Shown here piece by piece: positions 29,999 through 36,498 of a stretch of 36,498 bases of DNA. Made by a program: the position numbers and the translations under genes. The DNA comes from an uncultured bacterium (GTDB lineage: Bacteria > Patescibacteriota > Minisyncoccia > Moranbacterales > UBA1568), in assembly GCA_937864125.1 (NCBI GenBank), contig CALMHZ010000001.1:1-36498 (forward strand). The letters are read 5' to 3'. The stretch's first letter is position 1. The number at the start of each line of letters is the position of its first letter. The notes below the pieces were generated by a model, which worked only from the letters and a program-made list of their open reading frames with translations, made no database searches and had not been told where the DNA came from.

Positions 29999-31165
29999 AT
30001 GAGAATAGGGATAGATATTCGATCTTTGGCGCTCGGAAGGCGGAGCGGGGTCGAGGAGTATGTGATAGCGCTTCTTTCGGAGCTGTTTCGCATAGACCGG
30101 CAGAACGAGTACATACTTTTTTTCAACGCGTGGGGGAATGAGCCGCAGGATTTTTCATGGCTGACCCAACATCCCAATGTCACATTGCGGAAATTCCGTA
30201 TCCCGAACAAGCTGCTTAACTTTTCGCTCTGGTATCTCAGGTGGCCCAAGCTCGATCGGCTTCTCGGCGGGGTGGATATTTTTTTTCTTCCGAATATAAA
30301 TTTTTGCGCGGTTTCCGACAAAACGAAACTTTTCGTCACCGCCCATGACCTTTCTTTTGAAATGTATCCGGAAACTTTTTCTTGGAAACAGCGCGCGTGG
30401 CATTTTTTCGTGAATCCGAGGAGATTGCTGCGATCCGCGTATCGGATATTCTCCGTATCGCAATCGACCAAGGACGATCTCGTAAAGCGATACCTTCTCC
30501 CCCCAAGCCGAATCGAGGTCATACGAAGCGGGGTCGGAAAAAATTTTCGTGAGTATAGTCGGAACGATCCCCATCTTCTTCTCGTCAAGGAGAAGTATCA
30601 CTTGCCCTACACATTCATTCTTTATCTCGGTGCCTTTGAGCCGCGGAAGAACATAACGGCGATCATCCGGGCATTCGGCGCGCTCAAAAAAGCAGGCTAT
30701 CCGGAACTGGAGAAGCTTTCGCTCGTCTTGGCCGGCGTTTCGGGGTGGAAAGAAGAGGGAATGCGCGAAGAGATCAAGAAGTCTCCTTGGAGAAAGCAGA
30801 TATCGCTTCCGGGATTCATCGCCGACGAGGACAAGCCCGCCCTCTATAATCTTGCGAGCTGTTTCGCATACCCTTCTTTGTATGAGGGGTTCGGTTTTCC
30901 GGCTCTCGAAGCGCTCGCGTGCGGGGTGCCGGTCATAACTTCTCATTCCACTTCTCTTCCCGAAATAGTGGGGGAAGCCGCCGTCTTGGTTGATCCTTCC
31001 CGGCCGCAAGAGCTTTTCTTGGCATTGGAGCAGGTGCTGCTCGACAAGGATCTTCGCGCACTGCTTCGCGAAAAGGGATTGGTCCGCGCCAAAAAGTTCT
31101 TGTGGAGCGAAACCGCTCGACGGGTGCTCTCAGCCTTTGAAAAAGCATGCTCTTCGCGGATATGA
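29999..31165 (+). CDS. Glycosyltransferase family 4 (mannosyltransferase-like)
   Basis: MRIGIDIR, EPRKNI and YPSLYEGFGFPALEALACGVPV. Confidence 0.93.
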   Translation: MRIGIDIRSLALGRRSGVEEYVIALLSELFRIDRQNEYILFFNAWGNEPQDFSWLTQHPNVTLRKFRIPNKLLNFSLWYLRWPKLDRLLGGVDIFFLPNINFCAVSDKTKLFVTAHDLSFEMYPETFSWKQRAWHFFVNPRRLLRSAYRIFSVSQSTKDDLVKRYLLPPSRIEVIRSGVGKNFREYSRNDPHLLLVKEKYHLPYTFILYLGAFEPRKNITAIIRAFGALKKAGYPELEKLSLVLAGVSGWKEEGMREEIKKSPWRKQISLPGFIADEDKPALYNLASCFAYPSLYEGFGFPALEALACGVPVITSHSTSLPEIVGEAAVLVDPSRPQELFLALEQVLLDKDLRALLREKGLVRAKKFLWSETARRVLSAFEKACSSRI

Positions 31166-31234
31166 AAATTTTCGTTTTCATGGTATGTTGTAGGTGAGTT
31201 TTAGGGGGAGGAAAAATAATTGACAACAAAGGCT

Positions 31235-31420
31235 ATGGCATTGCAAAAAAATGTGGGAGGGGTGGACCGTGTCATCCGGATAGTGCTCGGACTCTTGATC
31301 CTTGCCGCCGGATATGCCAATGGATCGCTGTGGGGATTGTTCGGCTTGGTGCTTCTTGCGACGGCGATATTCCGATGGTGCCCCGTCTATATTCCTTTTG
31401 GAGTTTCCACCAAGAAATAG
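31235..31420 (+). CDS. DUF2892 (YgaP-like) small membrane protein
   Basis: NVGGVDRVIRIVLG...WCPVYIPFGVST. Confidence 0.9.
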   Translation: MALQKNVGGVDRVIRIVLGLLILAAGYANGSLWGLFGLVLLATAIFRWCPVYIPFGVSTKK

Positions 31421-31495
31421 CATGAAATCGCCGTAGAAAAAATTGTCCATCCAGTTTCGTTTGAATAAAAAATAAATAATTTATATAAAAAGAAT

Positions 31496-32827
31496 ATGGC
31501 ACAGGATTCAAAGAAACAGCTTTCGTCGGTTTCATCTTTGCTGATCGCGATTTTGTCGCTCGGGTTATTCGCCGGCGGGACGGCGATCATGGTGAAGGCG
31601 GGAGTCGTATCTTCCGCCCCGTTCGCGTTTGTGTTGGGCGAAGACGATGAGGATGATGGCAAAGATGACGATGACGAGAAAGATGAGGATGAAGACAAGG
31701 ATGATGAAGATGACAACAAGGATGAGGACGAAGACAAGGATGATGACGGCAAGGATGAGGGTGATGACCGCGACGATGAGTCGGAGAAGCTCTCCGGGCG
31801 CGGAGGGGATGACTCGGATGAGGATAACAAAGATGATGGCAAGGAGGATGAAGACGGCGTAGAAGAAGAAAGTGAGAACGAGGATGAGGAAGGTGACGAT
31901 CGGCTCAAGGACCTCATGGAGAAGGTAGCCGAATCGGAGAAGGAGATTGCCGAGAAGCAGCAAGAGGGCGTGGATGCCGCGGCTGCGCTTTCGAGAATCG
32001 CGTTGGCGAAAGGAGTCCTCGAGGCCTACAAGGCCGCGGTTGCCGCGGGAAATTTTGAGGAGGCCGATCGATTGGCGAGAGAAATCAAGAAACTCTCTCA
32101 TTTCGCTGTAGAAGAGGATCTGCATGATTCGAAAAAGGCCGGAGAGCGTCTCAGGCAGGCACAGGAGAAGATAGTGAAAGCGAAGGCGAAGCTCGCGCTC
32201 CTCGCGGCAATCGGCGGATCGACTGCAAGCCTCTCGACACTGCTTGCCGAGGCGGAGGCGAAGCTTGCCTCGGGCAACGCGGCGCTCTCCTCGGGGGACT
32301 TCATGGGGGCGGAAAATCTTTTCAAAGAAGCGAAAAACGTCGCAAGCAAGGTGAAGGATGCCGCCGAAAATGCTCTGTATGCGCTTGGCGGCTCGGATGA
32401 TGAGTTCGATGATGACTATGAAGACTTCTCGGAAGAGGTATCGGATGATCTCGATGAGATCGCCGGAATCGAAGGTGATGATAAGCGCGTGAAAAAGATC
32501 AAGGAAATCGCGATGAGACAAAAGCAAGCGGGACTTGAAACCGCAACCGCCGTGCAACTTGCTCAGCAGAGAAGCGCGCTTGCAAGATTCTTCCTCGGCG
32601 CGGATGATGACTCTCTCACCTCGATAAGCGCGAAGATTGCGGAAAATACCAAGAATGCGCTTGCCTTACGGGCGCTTGCCGCGTCTTCCACTGATGCCGA
32701 TCTCCAGGTGCTGCTTATCCAGCAGGCGGAGCGGATCGAAGCGGAAAATATGAAGCTCCAAGGGTTCGTCGCAGCCCAAGCCGACTCGAACGGCCTCTTC
32801 GGATGGCTGGTCGACCTCTTCCGCTAG
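31496..32827 (+). CDS. Membrane-anchored/secreted protein with an Asp/Glu low-complexity tract and Ala-rich helical repeats
   Basis: N-terminal hydrophobic helix, ~85 aa D/E/K tract, coiled-coil-like body and C-terminal GLFGWLVDLFR. Confidence 0.85.
   Translation: MAQDSKKQLSSVSSLLIAILSLGLFAGGTAIMVKAGVVSSAPFAFVLGEDDEDDGKDDDDEKDEDEDKDDEDDNKDEDEDKDDDGKDEGDDRDDESEKLSGRGGDDSDEDNKDDGKEDEDGVEEESENEDEEGDDRLKDLMEKVAESEKEIAEKQQEGVDAAAALSRIALAKGVLEAYKAAVAAGNFEEADRLAREIKKLSHFAVEEDLHDSKKAGERLRQAQEKIVKAKAKLALLAAIGGSTASLSTLLAEAEAKLASGNAALSSGDFMGAENLFKEAKNVASKVKDAAENALYALGGSDDEFDDDYEDFSEEVSDDLDEIAGIEGDDKRVKKIKEIAMRQKQAGLETATAVQLAQQRSALARFFLGADDDSLTSISAKIAENTKNALALRALAASSTDADLQVLLIQQAERIEAENMKLQGFVAAQADSNGLFGWLVDLFR
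31640..31900 (+). repeat. Degenerate (GAY/GAR)n coding microsatellite-like tract
   Basis: Repeated units such as GATGAGGATGAAGACAAG / GATGAGGACGAAGACAAG encoding DEDEDK. Confidence 0.7.
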
Positions 32828-32857
32828 GAGTGGCGACGCTCTCTGTAGCGCATGCCT

Positions 32858-32893
32858 TGAAAGCCCCCCTCTTCGGAGGGGGTTTTCATTTTT
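32858..32893 (+). terminator. Rho-independent terminator
   Basis: CCCCCTC-TTCG-GAGGGGG stem with a C(UUCG)G loop followed by TTTTCATTTTT. Confidence 0.85.
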
Positions 32894-32931
32894 AGGGAGA
32901 AAAGTTGCCCTAGGGAGTATTTGCGAGCCGC

Positions 32932-32960
32932 TTGAATAAGCGCGCCAGGTATGATATGGT
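32932..32960 (+). promoter_or_regulatory. Probable promoter of the speD-like operon
   Basis: TTGAAT (32932-32937), 17 bp spacer, TATGGT (32955-32960) with TGA extension. Confidence 0.5.
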
Positions 32961-32993
32961 AGGCGTATAAGTTTGTGTTGAGGCTATTTTTTT

Positions 32994-33404
32994 ATGTCTG
33001 AAACAATCAACCAGGCACACTTCGGGGAACACCTGACACTTGATGGATATGGCGGCTCATATGAAAAACTGAATGATCGAGAGCTTGTTCTGTCCTGCCT
33101 TTCGGATCTTCCGAAAAAGCTCGGAATGCATCCGCTCGCCGAACCCGTGATATATGCGGCTGCCGACAACCAGCTGAGAGACCCGGGGGGCTGGAGCGGA
33201 TTTGTCGTCATCGCGGAAAGCCACATCAGCATACACACCTTCCCGAAACGGCGTTTCGTCAGCATCGATGCATATACTTGCAAAAACGGCTTTGACCCCT
33301 CCATCATCGAACGATATTTTCAGGAAGCGTTTTCCCTCGAGGATATGGAAACCAACTTCATCAAGAGGGGGACGAAGTATCCCGTGGAAAATATCTTTGA
33401 GTAG
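32994..33404 (+). CDS. speD: Pyruvoyl-dependent S-adenosylmethionine decarboxylase-family proenzyme
   Basis: GEHLTLD, GWSGFVVIAE|SHISIHTFP autocleavage motif and SIDAYTC. Confidence 0.88.
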   Translation: MSETINQAHFGEHLTLDGYGGSYEKLNDRELVLSCLSDLPKKLGMHPLAEPVIYAAADNQLRDPGGWSGFVVIAESHISIHTFPKRRFVSIDAYTCKNGFDPSIIERYFQEAFSLEDMETNFIKRGTKYPVENIFE

Positions 33405-33433
33405 GGATTTTTCTTTTTTTACTTTGATCCATT

Positions 33434-34726
33434 ATGCGGATACTCTTCGTTTCGGGTGAACTCATCGCGGGCGATCTTCCGTGGCGCCTCAAAGAAGAGG
33501 GCAATGAAGTCAAGCTCTATGTTGGACATCCGCTTCAGGCGGAGTGTCAGAATGGATTTGTCGAGCGGGTGGCGAATTGGAGGCAGGAACTCGGGTGGGT
33601 GGGGAAAGATGGCCTTATCGTGTTCGATGATGTCGGTTATGGGCAGGAACAGGACAATCTTCGAGAAGAGGGTTACCGGGTTTTCGGCGGGAGCGCAGGA
33701 GGGGATCGCCTTGAGCAGGATCGGGAATACGGACAGAAGGTTCTGCGATCCGTCGGACTCAATGTTGAGCCAACGCTCAATTTCGCGACTCCTCGCGAGG
33801 CGATTGAACATATCCGAAACCATAAAGCGGCGTATGTCGTGAAGCAGAATAATCACCAAAGCGCGCTCAACTATGTCGGAGAACTCGAAACGGGCGAGGA
33901 TGTGCTCTCGATGTTGAAAAAATATGAATCCGTCGGAGTGAGTGATATATCGCTACAGAAGAAGCTTAGGGGAGTGGAAGTCGGGGTGGCGCGATATTTC
34001 AACGGGAATGATTGGGTGGGACCGATCGAGATTAGTTTCGAACACAAGGACCTGTTCAACGACGACATCGGCCCGAAGACCGGTGAAATGGGGACGCTTG
34101 CATGGTATGACGCGAACGAAGATAACCCTCTCTTTAAAAAAATCATCGAACCGCTAAAAAAATACCTTCAGGATATACGGTTCAAGGGAGATATAAGTGT
34201 AAACAGTTTTGTCCATGAGCACAGGGTTTCTCCCATAGAGTTCACCGCAAGGATAGGATGTCCAATAATTCACTTGCAGGGAGACTTCAACATTTCTCCC
34301 TGGGGCGAATTTCTCGCTGCTATTGCGGATGGGAAGCGGTATGATCTACAATATAAGAAAGGATACGGTATCGTGCTCACGCTTGCGTTGCCGCCATTCC
34401 CGTATGAGGGAATTTCCAATGAGTTTTCTTCCGATGATTTGGAAATATTTTTCCGTGACGGGTTATCGGCGGAGGAGCGGAAGAGGATTCACTTCGAAGG
34501 GGTGAAGCTCGATATGCGTGATGGTAGGGAAAGATATTTCGTGACCAAGAGCATTGGGTATACAATGTTCGTCACCGGGATCGGAGAGAAAGTAGAGTCT
34601 GCCCAAGAGTCAGCTTATTCGCTTGCAAGAAAGGTCATCATTCCGAAGATTTTCTACCGTACAGATATCGGTAGTCGGTTTCTCCGAAATGATCATGAAC
34701 AACTCAAACAATGGGGATGGCTATGA
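33434..34726 (+). CDS. Divergent PurD-like (GARS-family) ATP-grasp ligase
   Basis: LEQDREYG, YVVK, EHKDLFNDDIGPKTGEMG, IEFTARIG and terminal YRTDIG; lacks the canonical GxGGREHA of bacterial PurD. Confidence 0.8.
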   Translation: MRILFVSGELIAGDLPWRLKEEGNEVKLYVGHPLQAECQNGFVERVANWRQELGWVGKDGLIVFDDVGYGQEQDNLREEGYRVFGGSAGGDRLEQDREYGQKVLRSVGLNVEPTLNFATPREAIEHIRNHKAAYVVKQNNHQSALNYVGELETGEDVLSMLKKYESVGVSDISLQKKLRGVEVGVARYFNGNDWVGPIEISFEHKDLFNDDIGPKTGEMGTLAWYDANEDNPLFKKIIEPLKKYLQDIRFKGDISVNSFVHEHRVSPIEFTARIGCPIIHLQGDFNISPWGEFLAAIADGKRYDLQYKKGYGIVLTLALPPFPYEGISNEFSSDDLEIFFRDGLSAEERKRIHFEGVKLDMRDGRERYFVTKSIGYTMFVTGIGEKVESAQESAYSLARKVIIPKIFYRTDIGSRFLRNDHEQLKQWGWL

Positions 34727-35229
34727 ACCATGTTGTTTCGTATAAGAAAAAAATACTGGGAAGGATCCTTATCAGTTTTCTTTTATTTGTCGTTTTTGCT
34801 GCAGGAATAGCTTCCTATGGACGATTTTTCATTTATCAGGATTTTCCGGTAACCGTGGAGACGACATGTGATCCTGCTTCGGAGAGCTGTTTCGTCCATT
34901 ATTGCGATCCAAAATTCGAAGAATGTACTGGCAGGCCGGAAGAGGATACCTGGTATTACAAGAGAATCACTGGGCAAGGGAATGTACTTCCTTCCTGCAT
35001 AAGTGAAAAATGCGCAGAGGTGTCATGTGCCGAAAGTGAATTGGCATGCGAAGTGGAATTCTGTGATCCGGAGTCGGAAGAAGAGTGTTCCGATCGGGAT
35101 ACATTTCCGCATACCGATACAAATAACAAGGTTCAAACGGATAAGTCCACAATTGAAAATGGAGTGGATCCGAATGGAAAGAGTGACCTTGGCGAGATGG
35201 CGGAGAATGGAGCGGGTGGAGGGGAGTGA
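34723..35229 (+). CDS. Membrane-anchored Cys-rich protein (CDPxxExC repeats)
   Basis: ATGA overlap with the upstream stop, one N-terminal TM helix, 10 Cys and an acidic tail. Confidence 0.75.
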   Translation: MNHVVSYKKKILGRILISFLLFVVFAAGIASYGRFFIYQDFPVTVETTCDPASESCFVHYCDPKFEECTGRPEEDTWYYKRITGQGNVLPSCISEKCAEVSCAESELACEVEFCDPESEEECSDRDTFPHTDTNNKVQTDKSTIENGVDPNGKSDLGEMAENGAGGGE

Positions 35230-36182
35230 ATTCAATGCCGACTATGGATATCTGGAATAATTGGCTCTTAATCGCCTTCGTGGCCCCCTTCCTTTGGGCG
35301 CTCGTCAATATCATCGATGTGTACTTCGTTGAGAGCGTGTATGAGGATGAATATGATGGCGCAATGATTTCTGGGATATTTCAGATCGCTCCGTGGCTTC
35401 TTGTTCCATTTGGAATGATATCGTTTACGCTTCCGGCGACTGAGGCTGGGCTGCTGGCATTTTTTGGGGGCAGTTTGTTTCTGTTCTCTTTCTTTTTTTA
35501 CTTTCGCGCGCTATTTTCGAAAAATGATGTCGCATTGATACAGGTTTTGTGGAGTTTGAGCGTGCCTTTAGTGCCGTTTCTTGCATGGCTTTTTATTGGA
35601 GAGCGGCTCGCCCTTCTCCAATACATGGGAATCGTTATCGCCTTCATTGGAGCAATATGCCTCTCGCTTGATCCAAAGATTCGATCCAATGGTTTTGCGG
35701 CGACGGCGAGAATTATGGTTTTGGCCATATTTCTCTTGTCGCTTTCCATGGTGATCGAAGCAAGGGCTTATACTCTTGCGGGTGATTTTTGGAGCATATT
35801 CCTTCTGTTTTCACTCGGTGCTGCGATAACAGGAACAGGCCTCTCGTTTTTTGATAAGAAAGGGTACGCAGACCGGCTTCAGCATATCGCAGGGTTGAGC
35901 CGGAAGTATTTTCTTGTATTTTTTTTGGCGGAGACGCTGGCTCTATTGGGAACGCTGACATCGCAACGGGCAATCGACCTTTCTCCGGCGGTATCATTTG
36001 TAGCTGTCATCGAAAGTCTGGTGCCGGCTTTTGTTCTTGGCATTAGCTTTCTTCTTTCAGTCATGCTTTTCGAGAAAAATAGAAAATTAGCGAGGAGGCT
36101 GTATCGTGATCAGTTGGTGGGCATTCGTATGAAGATGGCGTCGATCGCTATCATTGCGTTCGGCATTTATCTCATCGCATGA
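35226..36182 (+). CDS. EamA/DMT-family multi-TM transporter
   Basis: About 10 hydrophobic helices in two repeats, LFIGERL..QYMGI DMT motif; GTGA overlap with the upstream stop (start may be ATG 35235/35244). Confidence 0.82.
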   Translation: MNSMPTMDIWNNWLLIAFVAPFLWALVNIIDVYFVESVYEDEYDGAMISGIFQIAPWLLVPFGMISFTLPATEAGLLAFFGGSLFLFSFFFYFRALFSKNDVALIQVLWSLSVPLVPFLAWLFIGERLALLQYMGIVIAFIGAICLSLDPKIRSNGFAATARIMVLAIFLLSLSMVIEARAYTLAGDFWSIFLLFSLGAAITGTGLSFFDKKGYADRLQHIAGLSRKYFLVFFLAETLALLGTLTSQRAIDLSPAVSFVAVIESLVPAFVLGISFLLSVMLFEKNRKLARRLYRDQLVGIRMKMASIAIIAFGIYLIA

Positions 36183-36261
36183 TGGTATTTTCGCATACTT
36201 TTTCTTTTCTTTGATTTCAAGTACAATAAACCTATATATCCTACAAATACTCGATACTTTT

Positions 36262-36498
36262 ATGTTTTGTGCCGATATTCCCTTCCCGAAATTTTTCTTT
36301 TTTTCTGACACTGTCTCACCCCTTCTTTATTATTCACATTTTTTAGCGATCATCCTCACGCTTGCCTTGGGCATTTTCGTGTATTGGAAAAAAAAAGAGT
36401 TGCTTGAGGCGAAGCTTCTGTTATTCATAGGAATTTTCTTTTCCTTGTGGTCGGTCGCTGATATCGTGCTTTGGGTTCATGTTGATGTGCGTATAGTA
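36262..36498 (+). CDS. N-terminus of a multi-TM protein, probably a 7TM-type sensor histidine kinase (3'-truncated)
   Basis: Open to the window end: MFCADIPFPKFFFFSDTVSPLLYYSHFLAIILTLALGIFVYWKKKELLEAKLLLFIGIFFSLWSVADIVLWVHVDVRIV. The helix pattern resembles HisKA_7TM domains; no kinase motifs are visible in the window. Confidence 0.55.
   Translation, partial: MFCADIPFPKFFFFSDTVSPLLYYSHFLAIILTLALGIFVYWKKKELLEAKLLLFIGIFFSLWSVADIVLWVHVDVRIV

Follow-up and report, generated by a model that had tools for sequence, protein, structure and literature searches.

A co-directional gene unit and its conservation

The window analysed here is a stretch of 36,498 nucleotides from an uncultured bacterium of the Moranbacterales (Patescibacteriota, in the candidate phyla radiation (CPR)). 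It is the entire contig C1 of a genome of 840 kb in 97 contigs, which marker genes place at 100% completeness and 2.6% contamination, and its composition is the most typical among the large contigs of the bin. At its 3′ end, behind a strong terminator, lie five co-directional open reading frames (ORFs) on the forward strand, and these are the subject of this report. The first (32994..33404) encodes a SpeD-type class 1b pyruvoyl decarboxylase proenzyme of 136 residues, recognized by PF02675 and TIGR03330. The second (33434..34726) encodes a putative PurD-fold ATP-grasp amide ligase of 430 residues, which profiles, an AlphaFold 2 (AF2) model, Foldseek and alignments assign to a family other than PurD. 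The third (34723..35229, with alternative starts at 34711 and 34717) encodes a cysteine-rich single-pass membrane protein, described by a family alignment and AF2, and the fourth (35226..36182, with an alternative start at ATG 35235) a permease of 318 residues and about ten transmembrane segments, of the drug/metabolite transporter (DMT)/EamA type. The fifth (36263..36498), cut by the contig end and therefore open at its 3′ side, encodes the N terminus of a multi-transmembrane sensor histidine kinase.

The intrinsic terminator (32865..32892, forward strand) ends the upstream gene at 31496-32827 and consists of the stem CCCCCTC/GAGGGGG around a TTCG loop, followed by a T-run. Its stem (32865-32882) has seven pairs, six of them G-C, and is the strongest within the scanned stretch, in agreement with the first-pass annotation of this DNA, which had placed the unit behind a strong terminator. 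The tight coupling described in that annotation was re-read in the sequence: the speD and ligase genes are spaced by 29 bp, the ligase and cysteine-rich ORFs overlap in an ATGA (34723-34726) and the cysteine-rich and DMT ORFs in a GTGA (35226-35229), start/stop overlaps that imply co-translation. The kinase ORF is also open from 36154, but its likely start is ATG 36263, because the family N terminus 'xxCxDxP...LLYYSH' aligns from there; the DMT gene stops at 36182. A promoter belonging to the unit, which had also been proposed, was not recovered. The two candidate hexamers, TTGAAT (32932) and TATGAT (32950), are merely 12 nt apart, and a scan for sigma-70-like sites found none in 32895-32993 and five in 31000-36498, compared with 5.4 in shuffles. 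Promoters of the phylum may follow rules other than the sigma-70-like consensus.

The neighbourhood of the ligase was then compared across genomes. Of 189 pattern matches, 135 encode a relative of the ligase, and the best 80 of these 135 were analysed, with one genome per species, ligases 43-73% identical and neighbours counted within 6 kb after ORF clustering. The kinase family lies near the ligase in 68 of the 80 loci, the DMT family in 60, the cysteine-rich family in 47, speD in 29 and a double-receiver response regulator in 25. Aspartyl-tRNA synthetase (AspRS; 22 loci), DnaK (16) and DnaJ (12) are found there as well, together with a class-I methyltransferase, c16 (10), and SET (8), radical-SAM (7) and PrmA-like (4) genes. 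The 49 loci with full flanks give the same families: kinase 44, DMT 41, cysteine-rich protein 30, speD 23 and response regulator 17. With adjacency defined as a gap of at most 150 nt on the same strand, speD directly precedes the ligase 15 times, the DMT gene precedes it 15 times and follows it 11 times, and the kinase follows it 16 times; the cysteine-rich gene precedes the DMT gene 12 times and the kinase gene 7 times. Gene order has been shuffled and inverted repeatedly, and the neighbours stay adjacent. With the same families found again and again near the ligase across 80 loci of different species, the arrangement is far beyond chance, and the unit that the first pass had described on one sequence is conserved across species.

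Methyltransferases (c16, PrmA/PRMT5-like and SET) and radical-SAM genes often stand between ligase and kinase. The c16 methyltransferase was considered as a hidden aminopropyltransferase and rejected, as its match to NF003380 reaches just 20.5 bits and this genome lacks the gene.

Two contigs from Betaproteobacteria (Rhodocyclales and Sulfuritalea), with a GC content of 62% and in genomes of 3.9-4.5 Mb, also carry the genes (L005:5572-8945 and L010:5386-8948). These loci keep only speD, ligase and DMT, together with a secreted protein of about 200 residues that ends in Phe and may be a small outer-membrane protein, and the GC content of the cassette is lower. It looks as if the metabolic core had been transferred horizontally, with neither the kinase nor the cysteine-rich protein accompanying it. 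In these copies decarboxylase, ligase and DMT, which the first pass had linked in function, form a separable unit.

In a sample of 401 genomes of the phylum, a ligase homologue (E ≤ 1e-20) occurs in 19; apart from that of the window genome, these homologues are 36-40% identical or partial. In two loci of one family, metK lies directly 3′ of a ligase of this distant subfamily (L092:3813-4961, L093:3327-4481), and another locus, L096, has the order ligase, ORF, MFS, speD, GNAT. No paper on the cluster or on the ligase family was found in open-access PMC and bioRxiv.

Three further genes lie upstream of the unit on the forward strand. The gene that the terminator ends (31496-32827) encodes a protein of 443 residues with an N-terminal transmembrane segment, an extremely acidic low-complexity stretch of Asp, Glu and Lys, and an Ala-rich helical remainder; it matched no Pfam family, and its homologues adjoin the cluster in 6 of the 80 loci. 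A YgaP-like small membrane protein (31220-31420; PF11127, 76.4 bits) is found upstream of the cluster in three loci, and a GT4 glycosyltransferase (29999-31165) in seven.

The ligase, the decarboxylase and the metabolic setting

The ligase is related to PurD, the phosphoribosylamine (PRA)-glycine ligase of purine synthesis, at a distance. It scores 34.5 bits against GARS_A and 32.2 bits against GARS_C, the latter under the Pfam cut-off of 34.8, and 88.8 bits against TIGR00877, below the equivalog cut-off of 288 that defines PurD. In a search of the whole genome with TIGR00877, it was the sole match (88.2 bits); all of 14 control genomes exceed the cut-off. An AF2 model built on an alignment of 78 sequences (pLDDT 95.1, pTM 0.92) has the four-domain N-B-A-C ATP-grasp fold of PurD, and the top 14 matches listed by Foldseek against the PDB are all PurD, with TM-scores of 0.69-0.78 and 17-22% identity; biotin carboxylases come next.

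The functional residues of PurD are named in two papers. In one (PMC2978367), the conserved B-loop GLAAGK contacts the γ-phosphate of ATP, glycine is bound by Asp217, Arg292, Asp295 and Glu297 (human numbering), and Arg13 and Glu14 of the N-domain GGREHA are proposed to hold the phosphate and ribose of PRA; the other (PMC8880213) gives Asp212, Arg287 and Glu292 as the glycine-binding residues of the Aquifex aeolicus enzyme. HMMER alignments to PurD structures place 'KQNNHQSALNYVG' in the ligase opposite the PurD B-loop 'KADGLAAGKGV', and the loop reads NNHQSALNYVG. PurD EFNARFGDPE becomes EFTARIGCPI, with the Arg kept and the Asn, Asp and Glu lost. At the glycine site, the counterpart of Arg292, R273, is invariant, whereas Asp217 aligns with E203, Asp295 with C276, a position occupied by Ser or Cys in CPR and by Trp in a viral clade described below, and Glu297 with I278. 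GGREHA faces S-G-E-L-I-A; in the profile alignment to 5vev, where confidence in this region is low, GNGGREHA lies opposite 's-k-e-l-i-a-g-d', with Ile11 and Ala12 in place of its Arg and Glu.

Other positions are retained. Across 76 homologues from CPR and 74 from viruses, little or no variation is seen at K137, E182, E203, K205 and E269, which supply the ATP-binding Lys and Glu and the acidic Mg ligands of the A domain expected in the ATP-grasp superfamily, and the GPxTxEMG loop, the acyl-phosphate Arg R273, R409 and D411 are likewise preserved; the usual Asn of E-x-N is Thr271 throughout the family. An F-D-D motif in the N-domain, invariant in 78 of 78 aligned homologues, fits a cationic nucleophile. 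The ligase shares with PurD (TIGR00877; PDB 2xcl, 2yw2, 2ys6 and 1gso) the four-domain ATP-grasp fold, the ATP-binding Lys and Glu, a DHK-like E-H-K motif, a GPxTGxMG-like loop and the acyl-phosphate Arg; it differs in the B-loop, the Asp and Glu of RFGDPE, the Asn of EFN and the Arg and Glu of GGREHA, all of which are replaced, as well as in its low identity, its gene context and a genome without a purine pathway. Given the score of 88.8 bits against 288, the replaced B-loop, glycine and PRA residues and the lack of purF and purM, the protein is, by its sequence, PurD-fold but not PurD. We infer that it is an active carboxylate-amine ligase with a cationic nucleophile other than PRA and an acid held differently from the glycine of PurD.

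Glutathionylspermidine synthetase and other polyamine-amide-forming ligases join a carboxylate to a polyamine amine in an ATP-dependent amide bond, which is the chemistry proposed here. They belong to another sequence family, and searches with the ligase against Pfam, NCBIfam and the PDB gave PurD-type matches only. Relatives of the ligase are numerous, with at least 1430 at E ≤ 0.001 among 7999 scored candidates, many of them 50-83% identical. PurD-like genes of CPR are commonly named 'phosphoribosylamine--glycine ligase' in the records of these homologues, a label that implies a purine step unusable by these CPR genomes.

The family extends to phages. ESM Atlas pointed to viral clusters, and at least 186 IMG/VR contigs carry ligase relatives. 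Eighty of these contigs (L105-L184) were taken as viral loci, 78 of which have the ligase gene in ORF cluster 0; the genomes are podovirus-like. In most of them, the ligase lies 3′ of ejection or internal-virion genes, some with lytic transglycosylase domains, and 5′ of tail-fibre genes. A DMT gene is present in one of the 80 and speD in none. The 74 viral sequences compared, with ORFs of 420-480 residues, show no variation in the catalytic residues or at Thr271 and Glu218, two positions specific to the family; their N-domain motif differs. The family is therefore not specific to CPR, and neither transporter nor kinase is required for its core chemistry. Among GenBank phage records, a single match (H41, 27.7% identity) is a plausible relative of full length; the rest, in bacterial or unannotated records, look like ordinary PurD.

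The decarboxylase homologue matches PF02675 at 89.3 bits (E 2.6e-25) and passes TIGR03330 marginally (76.8 bits, cut-off 75.65). In an alignment to 1tlu, 1vr7 and 2iii, its Glu75/Ser76, His81 and Cys96 align with Ser63, His68 and Cys83 of the Thermotoga maritima enzyme, residues named in PMC10407285, and Glu75/Ser76 is the predicted self-cleavage site of a SpeD-type proenzyme. The protein reads HTFPK where the T. maritima and PDB S-adenosylmethionine decarboxylases (AdoMetDC) have HTWPE. The SpeD family has 1776 relatives at E ≤ 1e-5, and the consensus of its cluster-linked members is KDPGGWSGfVviaESHiSxHTFPxRGF...DvYTC. A search of phages found cyanophage SpeDs that are 27-36% identical to the homologue, including the validated AdoMetDC of S-PM2 (26.8%), a weak resemblance; the same search gave no pelagiphage-type match.

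A SpeD homologue in a genome without SpeE, the spermidine synthase, is the mark by which neofunctionalised ornithine or arginine decarboxylases, or 'anomalous' SpeDs, are recognized in a recent study (J Biol Chem 2023, PMC10407285). The same study reports that a CPR (Kaiserbacteria) pyruvoyl protein of the SpeD fold was validated as an ornithine decarboxylase, and gives four central residues, Gln, Thr, Phe and Tyr, as diagnostic of the SpeDC pyruvoyl ornithine decarboxylases. Compared with SpeDC by residue names only, the consensus of the present family has the Thr-Phe in HTFP and the Tyr in YTC, and no conserved Gln. The homologue resembles the class 1b AdoMetDCs and the SpeDC and SpeDA proteins of that study in its PF02675 domain, Glu-Ser site, His and Cys, and in the absence of SpeE. 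Its company differs: SpeDC and SpeDA are described there as clustering with hss, speY, speE or casdh, whereas this SpeD stands with an ATP-grasp ligase and a DMT protein. Moreover, class 1b AdoMetDC pairs with a SpeE that uses decarboxylated S-adenosylmethionine, and the genome here has no PF01564 match.

Amine-related genes recur in the cluster in other forms. Four loci without speD (L008, L026, L051 and L058) contain an arginase-family gene inside the cluster, and the two genes occur together in none; relative to the agmatinase cut-off of 174.3 bits, L058 is over (210.8), L051 at (173.7) and L026 under it, and the gene of L008 is arginase-like. GNAT genes lie beside speD or the ligase in L029 and L096. 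The substitution by the arginase family and the GNAT neighbours are independent support for an amine theme. In the phylum sample, family f59 has the AdoMet_dc domain inside open frames of about 440-467 residues (for example G164:C3:85317-85628 and G057:C7:523377-523685), which suggests a fused SpeD.

The genome offers neither pathway to which PurD or SpeD would ordinarily belong. No match to purF or purM was found in it (the families purL, purC, purB, purH and purE were not searched), and the PurN model gave a sub-threshold match only (78.2 bits, cut-off 150.1). No SpeE (PF01564) was found in the genome at E ≤ 0.001, and DHS/SpeY, the Sacchrp_dh-type domain and the arginase family, including agmatinase, had no match there either. 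The saccharopine-dehydrogenase-type domain is the one carried by HSS and CASDH. The first-pass annotation, which saw no other pur genes and no speE in the window and argued against purine or spermidine housekeeping, thus holds genome-wide for the families searched: purF, purM, a canonical purD and the spermidine genes named above are lacking, and the PurD-defining residues are lost. In the phylum sample, weak Spermine_synth matches are common in open frames of about 500 residues (for example G066:C9:78415-78852) and make up most of the hits in 107 of the 401 genomes, whereas SpeE matches above 100 bits are rare (about seven genomes).

S-adenosylmethionine (SAM) synthetase, whether of the bacterial (MetK) or the archaeal (MAT) type, is also missing from this marker-complete genome. 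MetK is present in 147 of the 401 genomes of the phylum sample, and SAM must therefore enter by import in most of these organisms. The DMT protein was considered as the importer of SAM, a candidacy that is weakly supported: metK is present in 9 of 48 cluster-bearing CPR genomes, compared with the 147 of 401, and most genomes without metK lack this DMT.

The DMT protein has ten hydrophobic segments. At 25.2 bits it does not reach the EamA (PF00892) gathering score of 28.2, and its homologues in L047 (35.4 bits) and L085 (58.7 bits) pass it; a sequence search of the PDB returned EmrE alone, at E 0.1. It probably carries a substrate or product of the unit across the membrane, in either direction.

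The sensor kinase and its cysteine-rich partner

The kinase that is truncated at the end of C1 continues on another contig of the bin (C13:3-1409; family HMM, 666 bits). C1 ends in '...DVRIV', C13 starts with 'FFWSLIN...' and the L012 homologue reads 'DSRLIMFVWSLIN', so that the junction misses a few codons at most. An H-box, 'SHQLRTPL', is visible on the continuation, and in the L012 homologue (557 residues) about eight hydrophobic segments precede matches to HisKA (62.1 bits) and HATPase_c (93.9 bits). Past the kinase, C13 (C13:1-5676) carries a double-receiver regulator (C13:1482-2282, 418.6 bits), AspRS and a DnaK-like gene, in the same order as in relatives. On these sequence features the last ORF is a sensor histidine kinase, as the first pass had guessed from its N terminus; the guess of the HisKA_7TM family (PF16927) was not borne out, for neither L012 at E ≤ 0.01 nor the window fragment at E ≤ 0.1 matches it. 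The closest NCBIfam similarities of the kinase are to PnpS/PhoR/WalK-like proteins, all under cut-off, and the response regulator has two receiver domains and no output or DNA-binding domain. Of 301 genomes sampled for the sensor-domain family, 59 have a member. A comparison of the window with G298, a genome of the same family, was attempted in order to define an insertion and was abandoned, as the flanks are not homologous.

Members of the cysteine-rich family have a basic N terminus ('MDKKSK'), one transmembrane helix, a domain of about 100 residues with, in the family alignment, ten conserved cysteines, and usually an acidic tail. The ORF matched no Pfam or NCBIfam family, and structure searches gave no usable relative (Foldseek against the PDB, best E 1.2; ESM Atlas, none), although the L003 member is modelled by AF2 with a pLDDT of 87.1. 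When the kinase sensor and the cysteine-rich protein of the same genome were modelled as a complex, the median ipSAE of three runs was 0.75, compared with 0.00 for the best of three controls; the runs share at least 74% of contacts, and the partner pLDDT is at least 68. In calibration, 116 of 157 solved complexes attained the mark used here, as did 2 of 215 mismatched pairs; these counts apply only roughly, because own alignments were used. In the model, the transmembrane helix of the cysteine-rich protein and the strand that follows it contact kinase residues 86-155, including a conserved 'FDxxxCEA' loop. The prediction supports binding of the cysteine-rich protein to the kinase sensor domain.

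The probable outward-facing parts of the sensor contain cysteines of their own, one in the N-terminal 'xxCxDxP' (majority consensus) and an invariant one in the loop 'FDxxxCEAxxG'; their position near the predicted contact hints at disulfide chemistry.

Possible analogues of this arrangement are Agr-type peptide quorum sensing and those two-component sensors that are coupled to a transporter or depend on an accessory protein. The likeness lies in a gene neighbourhood where a multi-transmembrane kinase accompanies a biosynthetic enzyme, a membrane transporter and a small membrane protein; in the present case the small protein is predicted to sit at the transmembrane bundle of the sensor. The differences are the HisKA-type core, the two-receiver regulator and the existence of kinase relatives without the ligase. 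No Agr-like or other known quorum-sensing signature and no AgrB- or AgrD-like gene was seen, in an analysis that included no search aimed at them.

Interpretation of the module

The reading that we favour, at somewhat less than even odds (a probability of about 0.45), is a module with two arms, one that would make and move an amine conjugate and one that would regulate it through a two-component system. In the metabolic arm, the SpeD-type decarboxylase would supply an amine, a role taken by an agmatinase-family enzyme elsewhere, and in loci without an amine-making enzyme the amine would presumably be taken up. The PurD-fold ligase would activate a carboxylate as an acyl phosphate and couple it to this amine rather than to PRA; glycine is probably not used in the way that PurD uses it. 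The ten-segment DMT protein would move substrate or product, inward or outward. The compound handled by the module would be a small cationic metabolite. In the regulatory arm, the multi-transmembrane kinase, its cysteine-rich partner and the double-receiver regulator probably control or answer the metabolic arm. The conjectural parts of this scheme are that the ligase forms amides with a polyamine-like amine, that a compound is transported and that the arms are functionally connected. The first-pass annotation had gone further, proposing that the compound is made, exported and sensed. Its conserved unit, its sensor and its non-housekeeping character stand, whereas the optional speD and the kinase relatives without a ligase count against the rest; the chain from amine to amide to export to sensing is reasonable but unproven.

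Several observations weigh against the favoured reading. In the decarboxylase homologue, a Lys replaces the Glu of the AdoMetDC motif HTWPE, the Pro is kept and the Gln is not conserved, so that the protein, compared by residue names, fits neither of the published neofunctionalised classes cleanly. There is no obligatory single amine supplier, as speD is absent from 51 of the 80 loci, and any speD is found in 5 of the 19 ligase-homologue genomes, compared with 66 of the 401 genomes of the phylum overall. The decarboxylase, a neighbour of the ligase in just 29 of the 80 loci, is therefore best regarded as an optional supplier. Phage-module relatives lack transporter and decarboxylase, which suggests that the ligase can act without export. 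The modelled interface between kinase and cysteine-rich protein is chiefly one transmembrane helix against others; such packing may be favoured whatever the partner, and the controls may lack membrane proteins. On the regulatory side, close relatives of the kinase occur in two genomes with no detected ligase, G244 and G190, the latter with only the kinase and DMT genes adjacent, and G298 has kinase, regulator, AspRS and DnaK without the ligase. The kinase is therefore independent of the product of the ligase, and part of the linkage between the two may be inherited synteny. The housekeeping neighbours and the distant ligase subfamily, taken up in the next paragraph, count against the favoured reading as well.

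Synteny, which is strongly conserved in small CPR genomes, could in principle account for the whole neighbourhood, in which case there would be no functional unit, the ligase would be a divergent but genuine glycinamide ribonucleotide (GAR) synthetase or a relic, and speD would be an ordinary polyamine gene. AspRS, DnaK and DnaJ genes are likewise frequent neighbours of the ligase (22, 16 and 12 loci), Trp/Tyr- and Cys-tRNA synthetases share the neighbourhood, and G298 shows that kinase, regulator, AspRS and DnaK can stand together without the ligase in the same family. The distant ligase subfamily (36-40% identity), moreover, has the kinase in one, the DMT gene in one and speD in two of its 16 loci, which have no conserved neighbours beyond one genus. 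We nevertheless consider this explanation very unlikely, the least probable of those weighed here, because adjacency has survived many rearrangements and strand inversions, speD, ligase and DMT moved together into Betaproteobacteria, and the ATGA and GTGA overlaps imply co-translation. As for a genuine GAR synthetase, the PurD residues are lost while the catalytic ones are invariant across the CPR and phage clades, and there is no purF or purM to feed it or to use GAR.

Two other explanations accept a function and place it differently. The DMT protein might bring in a cationic compound from the host, be it an amino acid, a polyamine or SAM, that SpeD and the ligase convert or trap in the cytoplasm, with the kinase and its cysteine-rich partner sensing external availability and tuning the process, as a scavenging module of host-dependent CPR bacteria. 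A genome that lacks both types of SAM synthetase and, except for speD, all the polyamine genes searched must import such compounds; an amine-making enzyme is often absent, 51 of the 80 loci having no speD; and in G190 kinase and DMT are adjacent without the ligase, as in a sensor-transporter pair. Genes for SAM-using proteins also turn up repeatedly next to the ligase (c16 10 times, SET 8, radical SAM 7 and PrmA-like 4), and metK itself adjoins the distant subfamily in L092 and L093. However, CPR genomes with the cluster carry metK only slightly less often (9 of 48) than the sample does (147 of 401), most CPR genomes without metK also lack this DMT, which argues against a general SAM importer, the betaproteobacterial hosts keep speD, ligase and DMT despite having metK and a full metabolism, and the direction of transport is not indicated by sequence. 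Import and trapping is unlikely, albeit the leading rival. Somewhat less probable again is that the ligase modifies macromolecules, amidating acidic side chains of proteins or the peptidoglycan stem with an amine instead of producing a free metabolite, the DMT and kinase genes being loosely related to it. This would suit the phage clade, in which at least 186 viral contigs carry the family and 74 of the 80 ORFs fetched have 420-480 residues and intact catalytic residues, mostly without a transporter. Very acidic proteins are encoded close by (the tail of the cysteine-rich protein; the 443-residue protein at 31496-32827, found in 6 of 80 loci), DapF-like genes lie directly 3′ of the ligase in L035, L062 and L069, and protein-type methyltransferases (PrmA/PRMT5-like and SET) recur beside it. 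Yet its fold and closest relatives are those of small-molecule ligases (PurD) rather than of the RimK or TTL type, the tight betaproteobacterial trio of speD, ligase and DMT is what one would sooner expect of a small-molecule pathway, and no candidate substrate protein is as regular a neighbour as the DMT (60 of 80).

The two-armed module could also be drawn as a self-contained, autoinducer-like signalling loop, in which an N-acylated polyamine-type signal would be made by SpeD and the ligase, released by the DMT protein, detected outside by the kinase through its cysteine-rich partner and relayed by the regulator. We think this version improbable, more so than either import or macromolecule modification. 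If it were true, genomes with the kinase only, with or without the DMT gene, would be listeners, and phages with the ligase family among their injected or structural protein genes would produce the compound, or an imitation of it, while infecting.

The analysis thus delineates a sizeable and well-conserved ligase family that keeps its catalytic machinery, has lost the substrate residues of PurD and, in Patescibacteria, clusters with the genes of an enzyme that would supply an amine, of a transporter and of a two-component sensor, to which a new cysteine-rich partner is predicted to be attached. The two betaproteobacterial cassettes of speD, ligase and DMT offer a practical experimental route. 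Should the module make a modified polyamine that passes through the membrane, it would give a rare handle on the exchange of metabolites or signals by host-dependent ultra-small bacteria, and a phage-borne enzyme family would gain a testable function.

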